Virus record (IMG/VR): IMGVR_UViG_2061766007_000905
Length of the DNA stretch: 41,437 nucleotides
Reading direction: 5' to 3' (one strand)
DNA from: an uncultured virus (IMG/VR IMGVR_UViG_2061766007_000905)
Taxonomy: Duplodnaviria > Heunggongvirae > Uroviricota > Caudoviricetes
Shown here: in pieces, positions 4,174 to 40,963 of the stretch
Numbering within the stretch: position 1 is the stretch's first letter
Layout: each line of letters starts with the position of its first letter
Notes under the pieces: model-generated
Told to the model about the DNA's origin: nothing
Database searches by the model: none
The model's input: the letters and a program-made list of their open reading frames with translations, nothing else
Translations under genes and position numbers: made by a program

Positions 4174-4320
4174 ATGTCATACAAAGAAGACATGTATACT
4201 GAATTTGAGCAGTTCAAGAAGGAGCATCCTGGATGTGGCCCGGCTGACAAGGCAATATTCTGGGAAGAAAAAGCGAACGAGCTTGCCGATATACTTCAAT
4301 GGACAACTGGTGGACGATAA
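4174..4320 (+). CDS. Small hypothetical protein (48 aa), not in ORF track
   Basis: MSYKEDMYTEFEQFKKEHPGCGPADKAIFWEEKANELADILQWTTGGR*; fills the gap after the paralog array. Confidence 0.6.
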   Translation: MSYKEDMYTEFEQFKKEHPGCGPADKAIFWEEKANELADILQWTTGGR

Positions 4321-4334
4321 ATAAAAATTTAGGG

Positions 4335-4363
4335 TTTACAAGTCAAGGATAATTTACTATATT
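4335..4363 (+). promoter_or_regulatory. Phage early/middle promoter
   Basis: TTTACA-17nt-TATATT, the consensus repeated through the window. Confidence 0.75.
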
Positions 4364-4369
4364 ATAACA

Positions 4370-4525
4370 CGTTAAATGAATCCTCTCATTAAGAACTAAG
4401 GTTGGTAATTCGTTTCACAGCAGGAAGTTCCTCATGGAATGCTACTTACCGTTAAACCGGATGTGCAAACTGCGCGTCATGTAGAGAACGGAATCCCGTA
4501 AAGTTTGGTTGTTCTTTGGATTTTA
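4370..4525 (+). ncRNA. Putative small RNA with its own promoter
   Basis: No convincing ORF; lies between two promoters; ends can pair (AATCC/GGATT, AAGAAC/GTTCTT). Confidence 0.45.
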
Positions 4526-4548: not shown

Positions 4549-4577
4549 TTTACAAAACTTAAAAAATTTATTATATT
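4549..4577 (+). promoter_or_regulatory. Promoter for the leader peptide and tRNA array
   Basis: TTTACA(4549-54)-17nt-TATATT(4572-77). Confidence 0.75.
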
Positions 4578-4640
4578 TAACATAGTTAAAAAGCGAAAAC
4601 GATGAAAAAGTTTTTATATATAATATAAAAGGTAAAAGCA

Positions 4641-4733
4641 ATGAACAACACTCAGTTTTATACATATTCATGTAATTCGATTTGTGGACAGCAGTCCTCA
4701 ATTTATTGCATGTATATCAAGACTGGTGGGTGA
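4641..4733 (+). CDS. Putative attenuator leader peptide (30 aa) MNNTQFYTYSCNSICGQQSSIYCMYIKTGG
   Basis: AAGG RBS upstream; TGA stop lies in the antiterminator 5' strand; codon content mirrors downstream tRNA anticodons. Confidence 0.75.
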   Translation: MNNTQFYTYSCNSICGQQSSIYCMYIKTGG

Positions 4734-4771
4734 CACCAAGAAAGTTCATATGTAACTTTTAAGGCGTCACT
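4729..4771 (+). promoter_or_regulatory. Putative antiterminator hairpin
   Basis: GGTGACACC(4729-37) pairs with GGCGTCACT(4763-71) with one mismatch, plus inner AAAGTT(4741-46)/AACTTT(4754-59); mutually exclusive with the terminator. Confidence 0.7.
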
Positions 4772-4791
4772 GAGAAAGTGACGCTTTTATT
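4761..4791 (+). terminator. Intrinsic terminator (attenuator) upstream of the tRNA array
   Basis: GCGTCACT-GAGAA-AGTGACGC followed by TTTTATT. Confidence 0.82.
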
Positions 4792-4868: not shown

Positions 4869-4953
4869 GGCAGTTTCGGATAGCGGCAATTCCTGGAGGC
4901 TGTAACCCTCCCGCCCTAACGGGCTTCCGTAGGTTCGAGTCCTACAGCTGTCA
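4869..4953 (+). tRNA. tRNA-Tyr(GTA)
   Basis: Acceptor GGCAGTT/AGCTGTC, anticodon arm GGAGG-CTGTAAC-CCTCC, long variable arm, GTAGG-TTCGAGT-CCTAC. Confidence 0.9.
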
Positions 4954-4962
4954 CTAACATTT

Positions 4963-5050
4963 GGGTAGGTAAGCAAGTGGTTTGAAGCAGAGTGACTGTA
5001 AATCACTTCCCTATGGGTAAACATCGGGGGTTCGAATCCCTCCCTGCCCA
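4963..5050 (+). tRNA. tRNA-Tyr(GTA), second divergent copy
   Basis: Acceptor GGGTAGG/CCTGCCC, anticodon arm AGTGA-CTGTAAA-TCACT, T-loop TTCGAAT. Confidence 0.9.
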
Positions 5051-5055
5051 CTAAA

Positions 5056-5136
5056 TGCAGAGAATGACTGATCATCATTGGGTTAATCTTGTCCTACACG
5101 GTTTCCTAGGACTAAGGATGGGGCACTCTGCAACCA
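5056..5136 (+). ncRNA. tRNA-like element with a 7-bp acceptor-like stem and ACCA end, no T-arm
   Basis: TGCAGAG/CTCTGCA + ACCA; internal hairpins AATGA/TCATT and GTCCTA/TAGGAC. Confidence 0.45.
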
Positions 5137-5139
5137 TTT

Positions 5140-5530
5140 AGATCGCAGTGACGCTATGCGAAAAGGAGGAATCCTAAAATAGCGGTCGTGTTTAAAAGAG
5201 GTAACAAAGGCGGAAGTCCGCTGAAGTTTTTCGGAATCTTCGGTAAAAACCGTAAAAAGAATTTAACACAAATGAGAAGAGCCCCGTGTTGCATCATTCT
5301 TGATTTCATGCTAACGGGTAGTAACCCTGATGAAGAAAACTCAGGGAGGAGGAATCTGTTTCTGCGAATTAGATGAATACCAGAATGATGGTCGCAGAGG
5401 CGTAGTATTGGCTCTACTAAAATATGCCACGTGAAGCCTTTTGAAATAGGAAAGGTCGGAGAACAACTAAGGAGTAACTACCTTAGATACTCGTTAAATG
5501 GTCCTTGCAATTAGGACGCCTGTAAGTTTG
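5140..5530 (+). ncRNA. Large structured ncRNA candidate within the tRNA array
   Basis: GC-richer than flanks, no credible ORF, many helices (CGCTAT/ATAGCG, CCCGT/ACGGG, CCCTGA/TCAGGG, TCTGCGA/TCGCAGA, CTAAGG/CCTTAG, GTCCT/AGGAC) and loop-loop complementarity. Confidence 0.6.
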
Positions 5531-5537
5531 TGAATAT

Positions 5538-5625
5538 GCGCTCTTGGATCGAGCCCGGTCGAAGATCATGGCCTGCAAAGCCACTGGAGGAAACTCCCAC
5601 GTAGGTTCAAATCCTACAGAGCGCT
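5538..5625 (+). tRNA. tRNA-Cys(GCA) with a long variable arm
   Basis: Acceptor GCGCTCT/AGAGCGC + T73, anticodon loop CTGCAAA, variable hairpin GGAG-GAAA-CTCC, T-arm GTAGG-TTCAAAT-CCTAC. Confidence 0.85.
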
Positions 5626-5630
5626 CTAAA

Positions 5631-5721
5631 TAGCACCGGATGTTCCTATTAATGGATGATAGGCCACCAGGCCTTGATTCGGTTCAAATCCGAAAGCCGA
5701 AAGGCAAATTACATCCCGCTA
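5631..5721 (+). ncRNA. Y-RNA-like/tRNA-mimic RNA, motif copy 1
   Basis: TAGC-ACC-GGATGT-TCCTAT...ATT-ACATCC-C-GCTA; interior has a D-like hairpin, T-arm TTCGG-TTCAAAT-CCGAA and GCC-GAAA-GGC. Confidence 0.7.
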
Positions 5722-5734
5722 AAAAATTAAAAAA

Positions 5735-5801
5735 TAGCATAAGAAGTTCCTATACGCCCAGTGGGCATCCGACTTGAAATCAGACCAATTACTTCTCGCT
5801 A
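5735..5801 (+). ncRNA. Y-RNA-like RNA, motif copy 2
   Basis: TAGC-ATA-AGAAGT-TCCTAT...ATT-ACTTCT-C-GCTA; interior has an anticodon-like arm TCCGA-CTTGAAA-TCAGA. Confidence 0.68.
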
Positions 5802-5807
5802 TTTAAT

Positions 5808-5879
5808 GGCAGTATAACACAATGGTTAGTGTAGCGGAATCATAATCCGTTAATATTGGTTCGAATCCAGTTATTGCTA
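5808..5879 (+). tRNA. tRNA-Met(CAT), elongator; Ile2 not excluded
   Basis: Acceptor GGCAGTA/TATTGCT, anticodon arm GCGGA-ATCATAA-TCCGT, T-loop TTCGAAT; lacks the initiator 3 G-C pairs. Confidence 0.82.
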
Positions 5880-5940
5880 TAATAATATAAGGGACAGATA
5901 GTTACCGCTATTTGATAAAATTAACCATTTTATCTAACCT

Positions 5941-5948
5941 TATAAATA
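5941..5948 (+). promoter_or_regulatory. T4-like late promoter for the homing endonuclease
   Basis: Exact TATAAATA, followed by hairpin TGTAGTTA/TAACTACA before the ATG at 6001. Confidence 0.65.
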
Positions 5949-6000
5949 TTGTGTAGTTACGGTAATAACTACATAAAAATAAAGTTAAAATAGGTTAAAT

Positions 6001-6807
6001 ATGGAATTAAAATATAAATATCATCAATATGGTGAATATATTTGTGAATTTTGTGGATTTAAAACAATTACAACATCAAGTAGAACTCAGCATTTAAATA
6101 AATGTAAAGAAAACCCTAATACTGAACAATATAAAATATATCATAGTAAATGTATATGTGAAATTTGTAAAAAAGAATTTATCGCAAAAAAAGGAACTAG
6201 ATTTTGTTCAAGTAAATGTTCACATTCACGTAAACAAACAGAAGAAACAAAAAATAAAATTAAAAATAGTATAAAATTAAATTATATCAAAAACGGTAAA
6301 GATAAACGCACAAAATTTTGTAAAGATTGTAATAAAAAATTAAAAAAATATGGCAAAGCAGAATATTGTAATTTATGTTGGCGTAAACATAAAATATGGT
6401 CAAATGAAGAAAAAGAAAAACAAAGTATAAATGGTAGATATGCTGCATCATGCATAAAACGGCGTTCTAAAAATGAAATAGCATTTTGTGAATTATGTGA
6501 AAAATATTTTAATAATGTTAAGCATAATGAAGCAATATTTAATGGTTGGGATGCAGATATTATTATTGAAGATTTAAAGATAGCTATTTTATGGAATGGT
6601 AAATGGCATTATGAAAAAATAATGGAAAAACATTCATTAGAGCAAGTTCAAAATAGAGATAAAATTAAAATAAAAGAAATAGAAAATGCGGGTTATACTC
6701 CATATATAATAAAAGATTTGGGAAGTGCAAATAATGAAAAAGTAAATATTGAATTTAAAAATTTTTTAGAATACTTAAAAATAAATTTTAATTATCGCGG
6801 CAACTAG
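6001..6807 (+). mobile_element. Free-standing homing endonuclease-like gene (Cys-rich Zn modules, NUMOD3-like motif, C-terminal Vsr/DUF559-like nuclease)
   Basis: CxxC repeats, KQTEETKNKIK, DADIIIEDLKIAILWNGKWHY...RDKIK; more AT-rich than neighbours; inserted in the tRNA array. Confidence 0.72.
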
Positions 6808-6871
6808 CTCAATTGGTTAGAGTTTCCGTCTGATACGCGGGAGGTTCCAGATTCGAGTTCTGGGTTGCCGA
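6798..6871 (+). tRNA. tRNA-Ile(GAT)
   Basis: Acceptor CGGCAAC/GTTGCCG, anticodon arm TCCGT-CTGATAC-GCGGG, T-arm CCAGA-TTCGAGT-TCTGG; overlaps the endonuclease stop codon. Confidence 0.88.
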
Positions 6872-6875
6872 TTAT

Positions 6876-6952
6876 CCACAGACAATAAGCCGATTGGTGC
6901 GGCAGCAAGTCTGATAAACTTGTAAGTGTTTGTTCAAATCAAACTCTGTGGA
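6876..6952 (+). tRNA. tRNA-Ile(GAT), atypical (6-nt acceptor-D linker)
   Basis: Acceptor CCACAGA/TCTGTGG, D-arm GCCG/CGGC, anticodon arm GCAAGT-CTGATAA-ACTTGT, T-arm GTTTG-TTCAAAT-CAAAC. Confidence 0.75.
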
Positions 6953-6963
6953 CTAAAAATTAT

Positions 6964-7049
6964 TGAGGATTACCCCTAATTGGTAAGGGACTGGTTTGGA
7001 ATGCCGGCGTGGGCTTGCTCACATGAAAGTTCGAGTCTTTCATCCTCAG
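6964..7049 (+). tRNA. tRNA-Ser(GGA)
   Basis: Acceptor TGAGGAT/ATCCTCA + G73, anticodon arm CTGGT-TTGGAAT-GCCGG, long variable arm, GAAAG-TTCGAGT-CTTTC. Confidence 0.86.
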
Positions 7050-7054
7050 CTAAC

Positions 7055-7441
7055 AAGCAAAGCTATAGGAATCATAATAGACTGCCGGATCCTATACACG
7101 TAGCATGCAACGTCGAAGATAAGGTCTAAGATTTATAAGTTTGGGAAAAGGTAAACTTATCCAGCATGGTTCACTGGTAACTATGAACCATTTTTTAGAA
7201 TTTGCCTAATTATACTTCTCGATAAAGTATATAATTCATGGTTTGTACAGACTATGATTAGATGCGGTGCCCGGCGGTCGGGACTGGCCGAAATCGAAAA
7301 TGTATCTAGTGAACCTAATAAGTAGTTCTTAAAGGGTGAAACTCTAGTTGCCTTCGGCTTCGTAAAATGGAGTTCAAACGAAGTCATCCCGGTTTCTGGA
7401 ATGGTCTACCAAGACAAGTGCTTAACTAGCTCAAGAAACCA
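7055..7441 (+). ncRNA. Second structured non-coding block within the tRNA array
   Basis: Serial helices TATAGGA/TCCTATA, ATAAGTTT/AAACTTAT, ATGGTTCA/TGAACCAT, CATGGTTTG/CAGACTATG, GGCTTCGT/ACGAAGTC, GGTTTCT/AGAAACC; no credible + strand ORF. Confidence 0.5.
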
Positions 7442-7447
7442 TTTTAT

Positions 7448-7540
7448 GGCGGTGTGGTCCGAGTGGCTTAAGGCGGCTGATTTGAAATCAGCAGAGGGTA
7501 GCGATCCTGTCCTCCGTGGGTTCGAATCCTACCACCGCTT
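7448..7540 (+). tRNA. tRNA-Ser(TGA)
   Basis: Acceptor GGCGGTG/CACCGCT, anticodon arm GCTGA-TTTGAAA-TCAGC, long variable arm, TTCGAAT. Confidence 0.88.
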
Positions 7541-7549
7541 CGAATTTTT

Positions 7550-7633
7550 GGAAGTGTCCCGCAACTGGTGGCGGAGCTGCTTCGAACGCAGTGAGTCAGA
7601 GATGACTTGGAGGTTCGAATCCTTTCACTTCCG
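7550..7633 (+). tRNA. tRNA-Ser(CGA)
   Basis: Acceptor GGAAGTG/CACTTCC + G73, anticodon arm GCTGC-TTCGAAC-GCAGT, variable arm GAGTCA/TGACTT. Confidence 0.9.
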
Positions 7634-7640
7634 CTATTAT

Positions 7641-7711
7641 TGCCGGTTGGTGTAATGGTAGCACAGGGGTCTCTGAAGCCCTTAGCATTCGATCGTAACG
7701 AGTACCGGCAA
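7641..7711 (+). tRNA. tRNA-Gln(CTG), non-canonical T-loop
   Basis: Acceptor TGCCGGT/ACCGGCA (U1-A72), anticodon arm GGGGT-CTCTGAA-GCCCT, T-loop ATCGTAA. Confidence 0.85.
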
Positions 7712-7719
7712 CTTTATTA

Positions 7720-7788: not shown

Positions 7789-8229
7789 ATGTTGATTGAA
7801 AAGATAAATGCAGATATTATTGCTAACATGAAGGCAAAGAATTCTATAGATGCAACTATCCTGAAAACACTTAAGGCAGATATTCAGAAGGTATCTATTG
7901 ATACTAAGAAAGATATCGATGATATCATGGTCATTGATGTAACAAGTCGGACAGTTAAGCAATTTAATGATGCGCTTGATATGTATATTAAGGCTAATCA
8001 AGTTGAACATATTACTGAAACTAAGCATCGTATCGAAGTTGTTTCTGCATATTTGCCAGAACAGGTTTCTGAAGAAGAAGTAATTGCCGCAGTCAATGAA
8101 GTTAAGATTAAAATTGGCGCTACTACAAAGAAAGACATGGGTAATATGATGAAAGAATTGTCGCCTATGTTCAAAGGTAAGTTTGACCAGAAAAAGCTGT
8201 CACAAATTGTTAGCTCTGTTTTAGTTTAA
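7789..8229 (+). CDS. yqeY: GatB/YqeY domain protein
   Basis: 146 aa; INADIIANMKAK, EVVSAYLPEQVSEEEV and KKDMGNMMKEL match the YqeY pattern. Confidence 0.85.
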   Translation: MLIEKINADIIANMKAKNSIDATILKTLKADIQKVSIDTKKDIDDIMVIDVTSRTVKQFNDALDMYIKANQVEHITETKHRIEVVSAYLPEQVSEEEVIAAVNEVKIKIGATTKKDMGNMMKELSPMFKGKFDQKKLSQIVSSVLV

Positions 8230-8331
8230 CAGATTTTAAAATATTCAAATAAAAATATCGTTCATCAACATGAACGATATTTTTTTATATTTGTAATATG
8301 GATTTAAAATTGATTTAAATAAGGATATCAG

Positions 8332-9268
8332 ATGAGCCATTTTACAACATTCGTTATTTCGAAAACGGATAATAGAGAAGAACTTGAAAGATTGATGTTG
8401 CCATATCATGAATATGAATGCACAGGAATTACAGAATACTGTATTCACCAGGACATAACAGATGAAACAGTTACTGATTATAATGAAAATAAAGAAGATT
8501 ACGAGTCGGTAGAAGATTTTCTTGATAGCTGGCACGGTATAACTAATGTCTATGAGTCTGAACCGGAAACTAAGCCGGAAGATTCGTATGCTGTCATAAA
8601 GGATGGTCAGATTATAAAGGCATACAGGTTTACCAATCCTAACAGCAAATGGGATTATTATGGCCCATATAGTTGGGAACGTAGTGAATATGTCAATATT
8701 GATGGAGAAACAGACGTAATTAAGAAGTCTCAGTTCGACATAGACGCATTCATGGCTAAGAGAAAGGAATATTATACGGAATTATATAATAAGCTAAAAC
8801 CGTATTTTACGAGCGACTTTATTACGTGGGAACAAGCACGAAAAGAAAATGAAAATCTTGACGCGGCCAGGGATGTCTATAATAACCAGCAGTCCATGAA
8901 GGATATGAACGAAAAACTTGGCTCCGGTGAAGTATTCCATATTAGGTGGAATATCAATATTGACGATGTTGCTACTAAGACCTTAGACGAATTCGTNNNN
9001 NNNNNNCGAAGTATTTCATCTTAGATGGAATATCAATATTGACGATGTTGCTACTAAGACCTTAGACGAATTCGTAAAGGCGAATTTAGATACGGTTGCG
9101 CCGTTCTGGGCAATGGTTACGCCGGACGGTAAATGGATTGAAAAAGGCAAGATGGGCTGGTGGGCTATTTCTTGGGACGAAGATAATAATTTCAATAAGA
9201 CATGGACCGAAGTCTGGAAAGAAATTCCGGATGACTATTATATCTGGAAATGCGATTGCCATATTTAA
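8332..9268 (+). CDS. Conserved phage hypothetical protein (NPNSKWDYY, GKMGWW, C-terminal DCHI), split by an assembly gap
   Basis: Frame broken at the N-gap 8997-9006. Post-gap sequence repeats about 8929-8996, then continues ...AMVTPDGKWIEKGKMGWWAIS...CDCHI*. Confidence 0.75.
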
Positions 9269-9274
9269 TAAGAG

Positions 9275-9640
9275 GTGCTTATGTATTATAATAATATTGA
9301 AGATACTTGCTGGGAAATCAAAGACATTATTAAAGAAAATTTTTTGGACGAGAATGACAAAGAAAAAGATACGTTTGTCTTGTCTAAGGAAGACGCGCAT
9401 AATATCCTAAAGAAACTGCGGGAAATCGAAAATGAAGCCGATGACTTGGAAGCTGATATAGACAATAAAGAAGATGACATTTCAGAACTTGAAGATCGAA
9501 TATCTGATTTGGAATTTTATGACGATATTCCTGACGAGCTTGCGATGTTATTACATGACCGTAACTATGATTTAGGAACAGTTCTCGAATTAAAAGAAAC
9601 GATTATAAATGTCTTAAAGAAACGCGGCTATAATGTTTAA
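9275..9640 (+). CDS. Acidic coiled-coil hypothetical protein
   Basis: GAGG upstream; heptad pattern LEADIDNKEDDISELEDRISDLE. Confidence 0.7.
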   Translation: MLMYYNNIEDTCWEIKDIIKENFLDENDKEKDTFVLSKEDAHNILKKLREIENEADDLEADIDNKEDDISELEDRISDLEFYDDIPDELAMLLHDRNYDLGTVLELKETIINVLKKRGYNV

Positions 9641-9652
9641 TTCGATAAAGGG

Positions 9653-9681
9653 TTTACAAAAACCCTTTATTTTTTTATATT
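9653..9681 (+). promoter_or_regulatory. Terminator/promoter cassette
   Basis: TTTACA-17nt-TATATT with -35 in hairpin AAAGGGTTT/AAACCCTTT. Confidence 0.72.
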
Positions 9682-9688
9682 ATAATCT

Positions 9689-9907
9689 ATGGGAAAAGAA
9701 CAAGTAAAACTAAAAGAATACTCTTTTGAAATCGGACCGATTGACGATACTAGCGAAACTGTCGCTATTGTCGGAGAAGAGTATTCCAGTGTCGGAAGCG
9801 ATGAAAAGTTTTACCGCAAGGAAGACGTCGATAAGCTGATTGCGGAAAAAGATAAAGAAATCAAGATGCTGGAATACATGTTGCATATTTCTTCGAAACA
9901 GGTATAG
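9689..9907 (+). CDS. Hypothetical protein
   Basis: ORF starts 7 nt after the -10 box, possibly leaderless. Confidence 0.7.
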   Translation: MGKEQVKLKEYSFEIGPIDDTSETVAIVGEEYSSVGSDEKFYRKEDVDKLIAEKDKEIKMLEYMLHISSKQV

Positions 9908-9908
9908 T

Positions 9909-10316
9909 ATGAAATCGATATTTATCAGCGGTAGTTCGTCTATTCATGAATTGACAACGGACATGGAAAAAAGCCTTGACGAAATTATCAAGCGTAAAAT
10001 TCCAGTTCTTATCGGTGATTGCTATGGCATAGATTCATTAGTCCAGCGGTATTTTCATGAAAGAAATTATAAAGATGTTACCGTCTATTATGTCGGCAGT
10101 TATCCCAGATGTCATTTTATCGAATTCAAGAAAAAAGACTGTAACGACCTAGTATCTAATGAAACAGGTCGTGCGTTCTATGAAGTCAAGGATATTCAAA
10201 TGTCGGAACATTGTACTGGCGCATTGATGTTCTGGGACGGTAAAAGCCAAGGCACAAAAAACAATATCGAGCGCTGTAAAAAATTAAAAAAGAATTATAA
10301 AATTGTAAAAGGTTAA
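9909..10316 (+). CDS. SLOG superfamily (YspA/DUF2493-like) protein
   Basis: IFISGS, IGDCYGIDSL, KDIQMS and FWDGKSQGTKNNI motifs; start reassigned to ATG 9909. Confidence 0.72.
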   Translation: MKSIFISGSSSIHELTTDMEKSLDEIIKRKIPVLIGDCYGIDSLVQRYFHERNYKDVTVYYVGSYPRCHFIEFKKKDCNDLVSNETGRAFYEVKDIQMSEHCTGALMFWDGKSQGTKNNIERCKKLKKNYKIVKG

Positions 10317-10318
10317 TC

Positions 10319-11140
10319 ATGGATATTAAAGCAGAAAATTTAAAAGTATTCAACGATACGCTTAAGCAGATTAAAAACGATAAGACTTTGAACGAATCTG
10401 TCGGAAAGTCGGTCTCGGATTCTAAGGTCTATAGCGATTTTTATTTCCGGACATTTGAAATGCCGAAGTTTGAAAACATCGGCCCGGCAAAGGTAAAGGT
10501 CACAAAGAACAGTTCGTTCAATGCGGCAAGAAATTATAACGGGAAAGTAGCGGTCCTTAACTTCGCATCGGCTACGAACCCGGGCGGTGGCGTTACCAAG
10601 GGTTCTACCGCACAGGAAGAATGCCTTTGCAGATGTTCGACTCTTTATCCGGTGCTTTCGGATAGCAGATTTGACATTCCGTACTATGGCTTGCATAAGC
10701 GTGACGGAGACGCATTGCATAATAATGATATTATCTATTCTCCGAACATTTACATTATCAAGTCCGATAATTACACTAATCTTTTCAGGCCGTCAACTGT
10801 AAATGTCATTACATGTGCCGCGCCGAATCTTCGTGAAACGCCGGCTAACGCTTATAACCATGAACGCGGTGAAAGACCGAATATCAGCGATAAGGAATTG
10901 CTGAAGCTTCATGAAAATCGCGGCAGGTGTATTCTTCGAGTTGCTGCAGAAAATGGCAATGAAACAGTTATTCTCGGCGCTTTCGGTTGTGGCGCATTTA
11001 AGAATAAGCCGGAAATTGTTGCACAGGCATACAAGAATATCCTTCCGGAATTCGTAAATCATTTCAAGAATATCGAATTCGCGGTATTCTGCGGGCGCGA
11101 TACTGTAAACTATGATACATTCAAGAGGATTTTAGGTTAA
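10319..11140 (+). CDS. TIGR02452/DUF2263 macrodomain (bacterial-type poly-ADP-ribose glycohydrolase-like)
   Basis: VLNFASATNPGGG, AQEECLCRCS, IYSP, ITCAAPNL, ILGAFGCGAF. Confidence 0.9.
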   Translation: MDIKAENLKVFNDTLKQIKNDKTLNESVGKSVSDSKVYSDFYFRTFEMPKFENIGPAKVKVTKNSSFNAARNYNGKVAVLNFASATNPGGGVTKGSTAQEECLCRCSTLYPVLSDSRFDIPYYGLHKRDGDALHNNDIIYSPNIYIIKSDNYTNLFRPSTVNVITCAAPNLRETPANAYNHERGERPNISDKELLKLHENRGRCILRVAAENGNETVILGAFGCGAFKNKPEIVAQAYKNILPEFVNHFKNIEFAVFCGRDTVNYDTFKRILG

Positions 11141-11141
11141 T

Positions 11142-11699
11142 ATGAGCGAAACAGTTAATGAATTCGTAAAAGCGGCAATTCTTAACACAAAAAAGAATAT
11201 TCCAGATTATTTTGTAAAATGCCTGGAACAAAGATTGTGTAACGGTCAAGGTAGTGTTACAGATTTTGATAATGTTGAAGCCCTTGAAAAGCAGCTTCTT
11301 GAATCGGACTGGAAAGAATATCATCATCCGAATATCGCCGATGGCTGTTCAGCATATAAGACTGAATCGTTTGGCGGATATATCGGTATGATTCCGCTCG
11401 GATGCTTGCCTGGCGATACGATTTGCCGATTCACGGATGTCAAGGGAACTGGAACTTTGTCACTTACCTGTTATGCCGATACGGATAGACACCCGGTCAA
11501 TTATAATATATTGATTGTCGGTGATGACGGTTTTGGCCCATGTATGTTTACGTTCCATCCGGGTGAACCATTGCGTCCGTCAACTTTGTCGTCTGATGGC
11601 AATAATGAATTCGGGTACAAAGAAGGTACGACTATTACTGTTGCCAAAGCAATCCTTCTCGGTTTCAGGTATGCGAAGCTCCAGACCACAAAAAATTAA
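11142..11699 (+). CDS. Hypothetical protein
   Basis: 185-aa ORF abutting the previous gene; MFTFHPGEP motif. Confidence 0.75.
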   Translation: MSETVNEFVKAAILNTKKNIPDYFVKCLEQRLCNGQGSVTDFDNVEALEKQLLESDWKEYHHPNIADGCSAYKTESFGGYIGMIPLGCLPGDTICRFTDVKGTGTLSLTCYADTDRHPVNYNILIVGDDGFGPCMFTFHPGEPLRPSTLSSDGNNEFGYKEGTTITVAKAILLGFRYAKLQTTKN

Positions 11700-11719: not shown

Positions 11720-11748
11720 TTTACAAAAGTAAAATTTTTTACTATATT
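11720..11748 (+). promoter_or_regulatory. Phage early/middle promoter
   Basis: TTTACA-17nt-TATATT. Confidence 0.75.
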
Positions 11749-11767: not shown

Positions 11768-11822
11768 ACGCATAGAGGGTTCCTATGAAATGGTTCTAGG
11801 AAATCAAGTTTACCCTCCGCTA
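11768..11822 (+). promoter_or_regulatory. 5'-leader RNA element, motif copy 3
   Basis: GC-ATA-GAGGGT-TCCTAT...TTT-ACCCTC-C-GCTA immediately before AAGGA RBS; same architecture as 5631 and 5735. Confidence 0.72.
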
Positions 11823-11836
11823 AAAAGGAAACAATT

Positions 11837-13801
11837 ATGTCTAAGTTGTCTAAGTCCACTCTCGTTAAGATTATTTCCATGTTCAATGTCGCCCCAGAAG
11901 CGACAAATGAAAATCGACTTTCATTTGAGGAAGTCAACAAGGAATCGTCTAAGTACGGCTATTTGATTCATCCGGATTGCTGCTCCGATATTACTCTTCA
12001 GTGGGTTAAGGATGTTGCACGTACTAACTATAACAAGACTTTCTATAAGAAGTGGGAAGATATTACCTCCAAGACTCGTTTTGAGCTCTTGATTGATCAG
12101 TTGCTGCATTATGCATCTACCTACGGAACTAATTTTACCGAAGGTAACGGTTATGTTCCGAATGACGGTCCGGATGTAGAAATTCCGTTCGAAAACTTCA
12201 AGGTTATTATGCCGGCAACCGATCGTGAAATCTACGACCGCGCAGTAGGTATGTTTGCTAGCGGTATCGCTCTTGAAGGTGATACTGTAGATACATTGTC
12301 TGATTTTGTTCTTTATCATGTAAAGAACTCTGGTTTCGAACTTGATGTTGATAAGATTAAGAACAAGGAAGTTCAGGTCAAGTTCTGTGATGAACTCAAT
12401 GTTACGCCGAAGGATGCATTTGCGCTCTTGCGTTATCTCATCTATAAGGCAACTGGCAAGTTCATGCTCATCAAGGACCGCGCAACAATCAAGGCCTTGA
12501 AGGAAAACCATGACAAGTACAGCATCGTTGGCCTCACCCAGGAGCAGAAGATTTCTTTGGCTTCTATCTTCTATCGATTCAAGCCGTTGTTCCTTGCAAT
12601 GAAGTCGTCTGAAGGTACTTCTAAGTCAATGATGACTGACGCCTTTAGGAAGGCCGCTGCTAAGGTCGGCGTTAAGTCCTTGACCAAGGTTACAAACGCT
12701 TCGGTCATCAACGAGATCCGTCGTCTTGCAAAGACCTATCATAAGCCGTTTAAGGCTGGCCTCTGGGAAACTGTCCTTTGCGAAGAGAAGGACTTGGACC
12801 AGGTAAAGGCTCATCTTGGCGATATTACTAACTTCAAGAAGATTACGCTTATGCAGGGCATTCTTGCTAAGCTCCAGAAGTGTAATGGTAAGATGTATGT
12901 CATTCGTAACGGCCGTATGTGGGTTGACGAAAACTATAAGCCGAAGAAGGATAAGACTTCTTACTTGATGTCTCTTTATGGATTGCTCGAACAGTCTATT
13001 GTCGATTCTATCAAGTCTAAGGCTGGTCTCGTCGTTGTACCGAAGAACGTTAACTTTACCATTCCGACTTCGGAAAAGAACTTCATCGGTAACTATCCGT
13101 TTGGCACGTCCGTTGACCTTGGCGACAAGAACAACGTTATCGGTATCTACTGGCGTAACGAATGGGGCACTCGTGACTTCGACCTTCACATGTATGACCT
13201 CGAAGGCCATTCTTATGGATGGAACTCGTCTTATACGAACAGCAAGAACACTGTCATCTATTCCGGTGACATGACTAATGCTGAACCGGAAGCAACTGAG
13301 TTGTTCTATTTCAGTAAGGCTGTCGGTTCTGCTAAGGTTTCTGTTAACCAGTTCTCTGGTCAGCCGAAGTCTCAGTTCAAGCTCTTCGTGGCTACTGAAG
13401 ACATGACTTCTAAGCTCGGTTCTAGCGGCTTCGGTCGTCGTAACGGTGGCAACATCGTTATGTGTGATCCGAACAACGTCAAGGCTGAATTCATTATTCC
13501 GGTCGACAACGAATCTTGTAAGGAATGTGCATTGATTACCGATAATAAGGTTCATCTCATGGATCTTACTTCAGGCAGCGGTCGTGTTCCGAATTCAAAG
13601 TATAGCAAGGTTTACCTTGAACAGCTTGAAATCAAGAGCCGTACGTTCATCGACTTGAATGATGTTCTCGTTAAGGCTGGCTTTACGCTGGTTAACGAAG
13701 TTCCGGAAGTAGCAGAAGGCGAAACCGCTCCGAAGGTAGTTCTTGATTTGACCAATCCGGCTAAGGATGATCTTATCAAGCTCTTCAGCGACGCTAAGTA
13801 G
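11837..13801 (+). CDS. Large helical protein with C-terminal TerD-like domain (possible divergent Ro/TROVE-TerD fusion)
   Basis: GIYWRN..RDFDLH..YGWNS..YSGDMTNAEPEATE resembles TerD motifs; the N-terminal ~400 aa look helical; strong high-expression-type codon bias. Confidence 0.68.
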   Translation: MSKLSKSTLVKIISMFNVAPEATNENRLSFEEVNKESSKYGYLIHPDCCSDITLQWVKDVARTNYNKTFYKKWEDITSKTRFELLIDQLLHYASTYGTNFTEGNGYVPNDGPDVEIPFENFKVIMPATDREIYDRAVGMFASGIALEGDTVDTLSDFVLYHVKNSGFELDVDKIKNKEVQVKFCDELNVTPKDAFALLRYLIYKATGKFMLIKDRATIKALKENHDKYSIVGLTQEQKISLASIFYRFKPLFLAMKSSEGTSKSMMTDAFRKAAAKVGVKSLTKVTNASVINEIRRLAKTYHKPFKAGLWETVLCEEKDLDQVKAHLGDITNFKKITLMQGILAKLQKCNGKMYVIRNGRMWVDENYKPKKDKTSYLMSLYGLLEQSIVDSIKSKAGLVVVPKNVNFTIPTSEKNFIGNYPFGTSVDLGDKNNVIGIYWRNEWGTRDFDLHMYDLEGHSYGWNSSYTNSKNTVIYSGDMTNAEPEATELFYFSKAVGSAKVSVNQFSGQPKSQFKLFVATEDMTSKLGSSGFGRRNGGNIVMCDPNNVKAEFIIPVDNESCKECALITDNKVHLMDLTSGSGRVPNSKYSKVYLEQLEIKSRTFIDLNDVLVKAGFTLVNEVPEVAEGETAPKVVLDLTNPAKDDLIKLFSDAK

Positions 13802-28630: not shown

Positions 28631-29776
28631 TTACTCTTGTTTCTTAACGCATACCGTAAATCCGATAAATCCTATCAGATATAATAGGCCAAGTACTAGA
28701 TATAGGTTATTGTCGGTAAATATGTTAGCTAATGCAGGGCCTATCAGGCCAGCGAGGCCCCAACCAGAAAGGGTCATTGCATGTATCGTAGAAACGGCCG
28801 ACTGTCCAAAATACTTTGACAATAGGCTAGGCAAGACTGAAAAGTTTCCGCCATATGCGAATTCGCATAGCATGATGCCGATTAAAGCGAGAATCGGGTT
28901 TTGTGTAAAGCACAAGAAAGCTGCGATGATTCCCAATGAACAGACCCAATGATATGCTGCCTTTCTGCCGATTTTATCGGATGCTGTAGACATTCCGAAA
29001 CGGCCAAGAATATTGAATACGGCGGTGGCTGACATTAATACTGCAATTTCCTTAAAGCCGAGATTAAGCAATAAGCTCTTTTCCTGGGAGATTAATGCAA
29101 GACCGCATGAAATATTGATACAGAACATGAGCCATACAGAAAGATATTTCTTCGTAAGGAATACGTCCTTTATAAGATACTTGTATGGTATGGCCGTATG
29201 CACCGTGCTTATAAAAATCGGGTTAGGCTTATATAGCCATGAGCATAGTGACATTATTGTCAGGAATATTCCGGAAAGTATAAGGAACATATATGGCAAC
29301 GAGAAATTCGCGAGCAGGTATTCGATTACCGGCGCAAATACGAATTTGCCAAGTCCGAATCCCGTTATGGCGAGTCCAGATGCAAGTCCTTTATGGTCTT
29401 CGAAATTGCTTAGCAGCTGTTTTATAGGCGACGTATAGCCTATGCCTGTTCCAGTACCCATAAACGCGCATGCCAGATAATATAAAGGCAATATGACGAA
29501 ATTGGTTGCAAGGAACATCAAACTCATGCCGATAGAAAAGAGCACAGTCGAAACTATAGCCATTCTTTTCGGATTGAGCTCTACCATTCGACCGAACGCT
29601 GCTGCTCCCATTCCAAGGAAGAAGATAATGAGCATGAAGCCGATATCGCCCTGGAATTTAGATATGTCGAATAATTGTTGGATATTTGCCGAATACTGTG
29701 AAAAGTTATAAACTGTGCCCAATGACATCGGCAAAAGAATGCCCGGGATCAGTATTTGAGTGAATCTATTTGTCAT
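28631..29776 (-). CDS. MFS transporter, OFA (oxalate:formate antiporter)-like
   Basis: About 12 hydrophobic segments; GTGIGY, KGLASGLAITGFG, FNILGRF..ASDKIGRK, YGGNFSVLP. Confidence 0.88.
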   Translation of the reverse strand: MTNRFTQILIPGILLPMSLGTVYNFSQYSANIQQLFDISKFQGDIGFMLIIFFLGMGAAAFGRMVELNPKRMAIVSTVLFSIGMSLMFLATNFVILPLYYLACAFMGTGTGIGYTSPIKQLLSNFEDHKGLASGLAITGFGLGKFVFAPVIEYLLANFSLPYMFLILSGIFLTIMSLCSWLYKPNPIFISTVHTAIPYKYLIKDVFLTKKYLSVWLMFCINISCGLALISQEKSLLLNLGFKEIAVLMSATAVFNILGRFGMSTASDKIGRKAAYHWVCSLGIIAAFLCFTQNPILALIGIMLCEFAYGGNFSVLPSLLSKYFGQSAVSTIHAMTLSGWGLAGLIGPALANIFTDNNLYLVLGLLYLIGFIGFTVCVKKQE

Positions 29777-36735: not shown

Positions 36736-36753
36736 GATTTATGNNNNNNNNNN

Positions 36754-36979: not shown

Positions 36980-37409
36980 NNNNNNNNNNNNNNNNNNNNN
37001 NNNNNNNNNNNNNNNNNNNNNNNNNNNNNNNNNNNNNNNNNNNNNNNNNNNNNNNNNNNNNNNNNNNNNNNNNNNNNNNNNNNNNNNNNNNNNNNNNNNN
37101 NNNNNNNNNNNNNNNNNNNNNNNNNNNNNNNNNNNNNNNNNNNNNNNNNNNNNNNNNNNNNNNNNNNNNNNNNNNNNNNNNNNNNNNNNNNNNNNNNNNN
37201 NNNNNNNNNNNNNNNNNNNNNNNNNNNNNNNNNNNNNNNNNNNNNNNNNNNNNNNNNNNNNNNNNNNNNNNNNNNNNNNNNNNNNNNNNNNNNNNNNNNN
37301 NNNNNNNNNNNNNNNNNNNNNNNNNNNNNNNNNNNNNNNNNNNNNNNNNNNNNNNNNNNNNNNNNNNNNNNNNNNNNNNNNNNNNNNNNNNNNNNNNNNN
37401 NNNNNNNNN

Positions 37410-40055: not shown

Positions 40056-40065
40056 NNNNNNNNNN

Positions 40066-40187: not shown

Positions 40188-40313
40188 NNNNNNNNNNAGA
40201 AATTTCAAATCTATGGTTGACTGCAGCGCAGAGTCTAGAATGTCTGTCGCTAAATTTGAAGAGTATACAAAGATGTTATTTGCAGAATTTAAGAAACTGA
40301 ATAATCTTGAATA

Positions 40314-40669: not shown

Positions 40670-40963
40670 ATGAGTTTACATACNNNNNNNNNNAAACTTA
40701 CAAATGAAGAATTAGACAAAGAATTAAATTCTGCTAATAGACTTTTCGTAGATTTGAATTGGCGTTATGAATATAATAGAAGAATAAAAGAATTTAAAGA
40801 AGAACATCCTGATGCAACAGAGACTGAACTTAGATGTCAGTATTCTAAAGAAGCTCATCATCTTGCTGTTTTACTTAATGCTGTAGGTAATGATTATATC
40901 GATTTGTTAAAAGCTTATATTGAACTTAAGAAAAAGGTCGAAAATGAATCAACGGGAAATTAA
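40670..40963 (+). CDS. Hypothetical protein (contains an N-gap)
   Basis: ORF spans a 10-N gap. Confidence 0.55.
   Translation: MSLHXXXXKLTNEELDKELNSANRLFVDLNWRYEYNRRIKEFKEEHPDATETELRCQYSKEAHHLAVLLNAVGNDYIDLLKAYIELKKKVENESTGN

Follow-up and report, generated by a model that had tools for sequence, protein, structure and literature searches.

What are the two RNA-like elements that stand in tandem inside a transfer RNA (tRNA) gene cluster of an uncultured virus, and with what might they work? They lie between positions 5631 and 5801 of IMG/VR record IMGVR_UViG_2061766007_000905, a 41,437-nucleotide (nt) stretch of DNA that was analyzed whole (here, the window) and that comes from a large T4-like phage, with 12 tRNAs and genes for tail tube, DNA end protector, exonuclease, DHFR, and Thg1. 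The original prediction, made from the sequence, had described the elements as tRNA-mimic RNAs with a common terminal stem, the handle, and had proposed a Y RNA-like family of modular adaptors or decoys. Our data strongly support a family of modular RNAs whose handle is conserved and covaries and whose tRNA-like cargo can be exchanged, and this family is far wider than the window. By computation we establish the structure and strand of the handle, its tie to a 654-amino-acid (aa) protein, its cargo classes, its RNA repair neighbors, and its position in a tRNA operon. The handle RNAs are a real and widespread family of which there is apparently no published description: none was found in our literature searches, which were mostly without subscription papers and supplements.

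Three copies of the handle in the window

Both elements lie on the + strand, copy 1 at 5631..5721 and copy 2 at 5735..5801, between tRNA-Cys (5538-5626) and tRNA-Met (5807-5880), and both were called by pattern, predicted fold, and covariance model. They read exactly as the predicted layout TAGC-ANN-(6 bp)-TCCTAT...ATT-(6 bp)-C-GCTA. The window has 3 occurrences of the motif GCA-N8-TCCTAT, compared to 0.26 expected, and 0 of 100 shuffles reached 3. A covariance model whose training set left out copy 1 recovered exactly three copies, copy 1 included, with 42.8, 38.0, and 33.5 bits (next best, 10.7), as the original prediction would have it. The third copy, on the + strand at 11770..11820, carries no tRNA cargo and ends 16 nt before the ATG of the protein gene, whose leader it occupies as a candidate autogenous operator. 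Its helix at 11775 had been correctly placed; its outer stem, however, has only 2 bp, and the unit lacks TAGC and ATT. The predicted fold of each copy has an outer stem and a 6-bp helix, separated by a 3-nt bulge that faces a single C. In copy 1, these are the outer stem 5631-5634/5718-5721, the bulge 5635-5637, and the helix 5638-5643/5711-5716, with UCCUAU at 5644-5649 and the bulged C at 5717. A possible degenerate unit spotted by eye near 4411-4457 was dropped, as the covariance model gave it no score.

What do the two tandem handles enclose? Copy 1 has an elbow-type cargo made of a D-loop-like UAAUGG (5650-5655), a hairpin (5661-5674), a T arm (5678-5694), and a GNRA hairpin (5696-5705), and its fold is better than that of shuffles (z, -3.44). 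The T arm and the GAAA-capped hairpin of the original prediction are both in the predicted fold. A 5-bp D-like hairpin proposed alongside them had to be given up: it overlaps an unnoticed AGGCC-ACCA-GGCCU hairpin and is outside the predicted fold, and relatives retain only the D-loop-like UAAUGG. Copy 2 has an anticodon-type cargo, with a 4-bp D-stem-like hairpin (5756-5766), one spacer base, and an anticodon-like stem-loop (5768-5784) displaying UGA (Ser) at 5775-5777. Four of the five positions of this arm pair as expected, but one is a C-A mismatch, and copy 2 by itself folds no better than shuffles (z, -0.81). In the related locus L066, another D/hairpin/T cargo takes the place of copy 1.

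Copies 1 and 2 do not have the cloverleaf, 7-bp acceptor stem, and free ends of a tRNA gene. ARAGORN and Rfam identified the flanking tRNAs and neither copy 1 nor copy 2, and an Rfam scan of the three copies, YrlA/Y RNA models included, returned no described family at an E of ≤5.

The handle is a covarying RNA structure found far beyond the window

Is the handle peculiar to this phage? We assembled 221 loci (cited by L numbers) with homologues of the 654-aa protein, 27 to 100% identical to it: 63 viral, 80 metagenome, and 78 GTDB loci. Two of the locus searches stand for the best 80 of 328 and the best 80 of 198, and the set includes close relatives and duplicates (e.g., L009 and L070). A descriptor search returned 417 handle matches, compared to 34.5 in shuffled DNA, and 396 of the 417 were on the strand of the protein gene. 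At least one unit lay ≤1.5 kb from the gene in 182 of the 221 loci (48/63 viral, 59/80 metagenome, and 75/78 GTDB), either as a lone unit or in arrays of 9 at most, and the commonest arrangement was that of copy 3, with a unit in the leader of the protein gene. The layout is GC, a 3-nt bulge, a 6-bp helix, and UCCU on the 5' side and helix, bulged C, and GC on the 3' side (consensus, GGC-AWA-RRRWGU-UCCUAU ... U-ACYYYY-C-GC).

Pairing was then assessed blind, with the strands picked by sequence anchors alone: there were 360 anchors on the 5' side, and 232 distinct handles also had one on the 3' side. Watson-Crick pairing reached 0.79 to 0.94 at the four variable helix pairs versus 0.33 to 0.44 in shuffled sequences (highest shuffle, 0.53) and 0.74 to 0.94 in the outer stem versus 0.29 to 0.78. 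Where units of a single array differed, pairing was retained at 353 of 459 positions. The claim that the helix changes in sequence while keeping its pairing, originally drawn from three copies, now stands on 232 distinct handles. (The figure of 97.4% paired describes units chosen for pairing and was excluded as independent evidence.) G-U pairs outnumbered A-C pairs at two positions, 36 versus 6 and 20 versus 5, which indicates an RNA of the + strand.

Tandem arrays have A/T-rich spacers of ∼10 nt, and whole units are gained or lost between relatives. Units also occur kilobases from the gene, among tRNAs, in the window and in the genomes G005 (8 matches) and G007 (7 matches); these dispersed units mean that the units cannot all be cis elements. 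Rfam scans of 20 related loci at an E of ≤0.5 to 5 left the handle unmatched and detected only cargo (tRNA, tmRNA, and sub-cut-off YrlA).

The handle travels with a TerD-domain protein

Which protein could recognize the handle? The candidate is the 654-aa product of 11837..13801 (+), a distant relative of NF041916 (RING_SCO0854) proteins whose family comprises 1,655 clusters at 50% identity (E ≤ 0.001). Residues 1 to 400 are mostly helical with no clear structural match, and a fold test identified a TerD-like beta-sandwich at residues ∼429 to 597. The protein had no Pfam, PHROGs, or PDB sequence match, and profile scans of it and of its family found no nuclease family. It can be compared with the MXAN_6230/SCO0854 RING-domain proteins (NF041916; Prok-RING_4, PF14447) and with TerD (PF02342), but it matched neither NF041916, for which an equivalog has at least 600 bits and a RING domain, nor RING; Prok-RING_4 is found among its nearest clusters. 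NF041916 scores were 29.5 bits for the relative P0260 and 342 to 357 bits for Streptomyces relatives. Deinococcus radiodurans, a control genome that also has Ro60 and a Y RNA, has a sub-cut-off NF041916 match. The top Foldseek rows (TM, ∼0.09; rmsd, ∼30) were dismissed as chance, and four structure searches against solved chains did not have Ro60/TROVE among the matches listed. The literature searched gave no RNA partner for this protein or for NF041916-type RING proteins. The accessible part of a report on Jug-phage terD genes, which encode Pfam TerD proteins, mentions no RNA (PMC12880540).

The linkage is also visible when the search starts from the RNA. A motif-first search found the complete handle in 30 of 36 viral loci, with the gene in the same locus for 22 of the 30; 3 of the other 8 were on contigs that bear the gene farther off. 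Among 150 Chryseobacterium genomes, the RNA model matched 91 and the full-length protein 90, all within the 91. In the one genome with RNA only (G134), the RNAs lie where a contig ends; none had the full protein only, and two further genomes gave weak partial protein matches only. Among 101 Flavobacterium genomes, the protein and strong RNA matches were in the same single genome, and six others had one weak RNA match each (23 to 29 bits).

Distant Streptomyces NF041916-like relatives have a variant handle directly after their stop codon, with a 4-nt CAUG bulge, an 8-bp helix, and UCCU and C-GC unchanged. It was found nowhere else in 3 of 4 plasmids (0.4 to 2.8 Mb); the fourth match is fragmentary and adjoins a transposase gene. 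In a motif-first scan for this actinobacterial variant, 12 of 16 loci had handle and gene and 4 had neither. Covariance model R1 gives the variant no score, and its identification rests on pattern and pairing. The shift of handle type with protein subfamily fits recognition and would equally fit shared descent of a cassette. Locus linkage and co-occurrence in Chryseobacterium bear out the tie between the RNA family and the protein that the original prediction had named as a candidate partner, and the protein very probably binds the handle.

The handle carries many kinds of tRNA-like cargo

Is the tRNA likeness of copies 1 and 2 shared by the family? Among 306 units, we found a T arm in 41 (0.6 in shuffled sequences), a D arm in 18 (0.2), and an anticodon-like loop in 39 (9.5; highest, 18), and the anticodons included UGA, GUU, GUA, GAU, UUU, UAA, UUG, GUC, CGA, and CUU. 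Some cargoes are plain A/U loops, an anticodon loop alone, or a T arm with a hairpin. The class of copy 2, D-stem, one base, and anticodon arm, comprises L229, L230, L238, L242, and L251, and its layout occurs with other anticodons in these five and in L032, L034, and L035. The class of copy 1 (D loop, hairpin, and T arm in canonical order) comprises L035, L154, L229, and L251. A further class follows the YrlA order, with T arm, closed acceptor, and D arm, and has sub-cut-off YrlA matches; it also appears on the actinobacterial handle (L287 and L299).

In addition, a circularly permuted, loop-closed handle occurs within tRNA-like genes that are canonical in other respects (22 cases) and within transfer-messenger RNA (tmRNA)-like ends (3 cases). 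These 25 cases were sorted by eye from 46 rows, of which the other 21 were dropped as unit junctions or chance. Permuted handles in such places indicate a portable structural tag that is independent of RNA ends. In L186, L187, L189, L220, L232, L242, L270, and others, the handle sits in the anticodon stem of a whole tRNA-like gene, and such genes are likely annotated as odd tRNAs or pseudogenes. The tmRNA-like ends consist of an alanine acceptor and T arm around a permuted handle with no mRNA-like domain (L238, ∼4240-4294; L251, 7724-7801, where Rfam reports a tmRNA match; and L273, near 330 on the - strand). Such ends may be bait for SmpB or AlaRS.

Handle RNAs resemble Y RNAs but lack their GNCGAA motif

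Are the handle RNAs Y RNAs, as their first description suggested? As reference we took bacterial and phage YrlA (RF02553) with Ro60/Rsr, as described in PMC4201824 and, for the phage case, PMC12135203. The former gives a Ro60-binding motif, GNCGAA(N0-1)G, near the 5' end; GNCGAA was present in the first 25 nt of 0 of 307 units. Y RNAs are encoded within ∼4 kb of a TROVE Ro60 gene; PF05731 (TROVE) had no match in 5 records that bear the handle, among them two complete phage genomes, or in 77 members of the linked protein family. TROVE was present in 112 of the 150 Chryseobacterium genomes independently of the handle, and it was missing from some of the genomes that have one. On these grounds we abandoned membership in the Y RNA family.

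The module order V-T-AS-D is absent from the window copies, where copy 1 has the canonical order of D-like loop, hairpin, and T arm and copy 2 has no T arm; it is present in L013, L032, L034, L035, L089, L121, L137, L218, L222, L226, and L287. RF02553 had no match in the window at an E of ≤5. In relatives it scored 54, 37.2, and 35.9 bits, all under the 69-bit cut-off; the last match spans the full model and the other two only the tRNA part.

Like Y RNAs, handle RNAs join a terminal bulged stem to a tRNA-like module, lie in several copies beside a protein gene on the same strand, have rtcB in their neighborhood, and occur in phages and bacteria. The bulged C of Y RNAs is on the 5' strand; the handle, in contrast, has its bulged C on the 3' strand, UCCU after the helix, and no GNCGAA. 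Its cargo is broader (isolated anticodon loops showing many anticodons, D-stem with anticodon arm, and, where the handle is permuted, whole tRNAs and tmRNA-like ends), and up to 9 units stand beside the gene while others are scattered among tRNA genes. Unlike Ro60, the partner is TerD-like, with no TROVE/vWA match and an unmatched helical region. By analogy, handle RNAs probably resemble Ro60/Y RNA in their mode of working, as tRNA-mimic ribonucleoproteins (RNPs) for tRNA damage.

RNA repair genes and a candidate attenuator accompany the handle RNAs

What do the neighboring genes suggest? The 70 commonest clusters within 5 kb were scanned and included RlaP nucleotidyltransferase (11 loci), RtcB (10), WYL regulator (9), Rnl1 (8), an AAA_33 kinase-like family (4), and phosphoesterases (19 and 6); no recurrent recombinase was found among them. 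The fullest layout, in L221, has a divergent WYL gene, rtcB, the RNA array, the protein gene, and two rlaP genes, and L210 and L187 are similar. Taken from sequence, these neighbors point to tRNA damage, a role that we consider likely. Where other loci have RNA repair neighbors, the window has PARG and YqeY genes. In bacterial chromosomes, tRNA arrays follow the operon of rtcB, array, gene, and rlaP (L210, 9510-11294; L221, 9063-9643) and are possibly inducible spare tRNA sets.

In the window, copies 1 and 2 belong to a + strand tRNA cluster at 4869..7712 in the order Tyr, Tyr, Cys, copies 1 and 2, Met, Ile, Ser, Ser, Ser, and Gln. Before it, at 4549..4787 (+), lies a candidate attenuator with a promoter-like site (4549-4577), a 30-codon leader open reading frame (ORF; 4641-4733), and a terminator hairpin (4761-4787). 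Of 29 codons of the leader ORF, 18 are read by the operon's tRNAs, compared to a background of 19% (P = 4e-7). The ORF is conserved in L001, L002, L004, L005, and L064 (L005, or G005, is a complete 424-kb relative whose copy of the 654-aa protein is 81% identical), and it holds two UCA codons, matched by the UGA of copy 2. A promoter-like TTTACA-17-TATATT, identified by consensus match only, stands just upstream of copy 3 at 11720..11748 (+) and is retained upstream in relatives. The same motif occurs at 4335, 4549, 7725, and 9653, often inside a hairpin that doubles as a terminator.

RNA runs matching this stretch came from bovine and sheep gut metatranscriptomes. One RNA-library contig covers 4868-7559, across copies 1 and 2; such contigs do not show where an RNA ends or which strand it came from, and carry-over of DNA is possible. 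A contig of run X12 skips copy 1. Contig cover is missing over most of 7870-11500 in runs X8 and X9, and contig gaps and depth figures were kept out of any expression ranking.

Several other stretches of the cluster and the window deserve mention. The ORF-free, structured stretch 5053-5537 from tRNA-Tyr to tRNA-Cys has no Rfam match; ∼5057-5258 and 5255-5532 are conserved separately (78 to 93% in relatives), and parts are in RNA contigs of 4 of 4 runs. It probably holds one or two more RNAs of unknown kind. Another candidate RNA is 7060-7445, inside the cluster, which is ORF-free, is in RNA contigs of several runs, and has no Rfam match. A tRNA-like gene that ARAGORN missed, at 6880-6955 (Rfam, 30.5 bits over model positions 9 to 63; GAU-type loop), is a degenerate tRNA or a handle-free mimic. 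An A+T-rich 268-aa ORF inserted in the cluster at 6001-6807 has zinc-finger-like motifs and a weak HNH-family match and by its sequence looks like a homing endonuclease. Elsewhere, an MFS transporter gene (28631-29776, - strand) interrupts an otherwise + strand phage region and is possibly host derived or an assembly matter. Runs of N, which are scaffold gaps or masks, are at 268-277, 1325-1334, 8997-9006, 36744-36753, 36980-37409, 40056-40065, 40188-40197, and 40684-40693; none touches the handle RNAs or the protein gene.

Discussion

How might one protein and so many tRNA look-alikes work together? We consider it reasonably likely that a single 654-aa TerD-domain protein uses handle-tagged tRNA mimics as bait, sensors, and/or repair adaptors and that the copy in the leader is an autogenous operator. 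The window RNAs would be trans-acting small RNAs whose common handle is recognized by this protein, so that one protein would hold a repertoire of tRNA look-alikes. Copy 1 would display the D-loop/T-arm elbow, and copy 2 would display the D-stem with the Ser-UGA anticodon loop. The mimics may bait host proteins that cut or sense tRNAs, such as anticodon nucleases and elbow binders, and/or may be adaptors that guide enzymes of RNA repair to the substrates, in the way that Y RNA serves Ro60. Anticodon nucleases act in phage defence and include PrrC, RloC, PARIS, and retron PtuAB types. Ribosome stalling in the codon-matched leader would cause the RNAs to be made together with the spare tRNAs, and surplus protein would bind the cargo-less leader copy and repress its own synthesis. 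We infer both the processing to discrete RNAs and the autoregulation.

A number of observations weigh against this proposal, and its binding and function are deduced from sequence. In the majority of units, which are short and rich in A/U, no tRNA part can be recognized. The descriptor found no unit within 1.5 kb in 39 of the 221 loci, some of which are cut at contig ends; RNA repair neighbors occur only in a minority of these loci, and no RtcB, RlaP, or Rnl was found among the window ORFs scanned. Any cassette would show co-occurrence of its adjacent elements, and the loci include many duplicates and close relatives. UCCU is predicted to be paired in copies 1 and 3 although it is mostly unpaired family-wide, and copy 1 is absent as a unit from the close relatives L005 and L064. 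A contig across both copies is listed in 1 of 4 RNA runs, and contig data are blind to discrete species.

Could the arrays mainly titrate a handle-binding protein, in the manner of CsrB/RsmZ, and so control its own or other mRNAs, with the tRNA parts aiding stability or processing? CsrB and RsmZ are protein-sponge small RNAs, and the handle system shares with them a stem motif for protein binding that is repeated, along with a possible operator within an mRNA leader. The majority of short units with A/U-rich loops, the cargo-less unit directly before the start codon in most loci, and the Chryseobacterium arrays of mostly 2 or 3 plain units all agree with a sponge. However, anticodon-like loops are enriched and show many different anticodons, which stability would not require, handles are embedded in whole tRNA-like and tmRNA-like genes, and phage units are dispersed among tRNA genes. 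Each handle unit is a closed module with its own, often tRNA-like cargo, unlike the one long RNA with GGA loops of CsrB/RsmZ. We regard a sponge with operator as unlikely. The repeats might also act as DNA, as REP-, attC-, or cassette-like elements that move with the gene and have no RNA function, and the tandem arrays with short A/T-rich spacers and the gain or loss of whole units would suit this. The strand bias, the G-U excess, the tRNA-specific cargo, the circular permutation inside tRNA genes, and the lack of a recurrent recombinase in the 70 neighbor clusters scanned make it very improbable.

Two other explanations take the tRNA likeness in different directions. The handle could be a protein-assisted tRNA intron or tag that flags precursors for cutting and for RtcB/Rnl ligation into working tRNAs under stress, with free units as by-products or competitors. 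RtcB and Rnl1 are indeed among the neighbors, and the permuted handle sits on the 5' side of the anticodon stem with the loop intact in several genes (L220, CAU; L232, UAU; L242, AUC; L270, UGU). Yet the insertion borders and linkers are variable, L186, L187, L229, and L230 have no clear 7-nt anticodon loop, the protein has no detected nuclease family, and the window copies have no acceptor stem, all of which renders this idea improbable. A shade less probable again is a highly diverged true Ro60/Y RNA, in which the helical region would derive from TROVE and TerD would stand in place of vWA. The YrlA scores of the YrlA-order cargo and the similar operon context with rtcB speak for it, as would the Pfam text on Prok-RING_4 proteins, which we take to describe ROT/TROVE-like repeats. 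Against it stand the lack of GNCGAA and of TROVE in the RNA and protein families, TROVE genes that are separate from and independent of the handle, and YrlA scores that all fall below the cut-off, two of them covering only the tRNA part.

How do handle-tagged mimics compare with other tRNA-related phage functions? According to PMC7824862, phage tRNAs and the RNA repair enzymes Rnl1, RtcB, and Pnk counter host anticodon nucleases. Handle RNAs likewise lie in tRNA clusters of large phages, and the purpose is probably common. Unlike phage tRNAs, they mostly have no acceptor end, so that they cannot stand in for a tRNA during translation, and they are equipped with a handle for a protein.

What would such a system mean? 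It would supply an uncharacterized TerD/RING-associated protein family with a candidate RNA partner and with a role that is open to experiment. Cultured carriers make direct tests feasible: the Synechococcus phages S-CRM01 and S-CBWM1 and isolates of Chryseobacterium, Flavobacterium, and Streptomyces. An RNA tag that can be moved and permuted, and that comes with a binding protein, is also a possible laboratory reagent. More tentatively, with the chances somewhat below even, we suggest that this is a second tRNA-mimic RNP system, independent of Ro60, in Bacteroidota, Fibrobacter, Actinomycetota, and large phages. Its portable handle would accept any tRNA-shaped cargo and provide every genome with an evolvable set of baits or sensors that match the tRNA-attacking nucleases encountered. 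This set would be linked with RNA repair and, in the phage studied here, also with a switch that responds to tRNA shortage. If this is true, the displayed anticodons would predict which tRNAs host defences attack. The Ro60/Y RNA design may then have arisen a second time, and the contrast between the two may help explain why Y RNAs mimic tRNAs.
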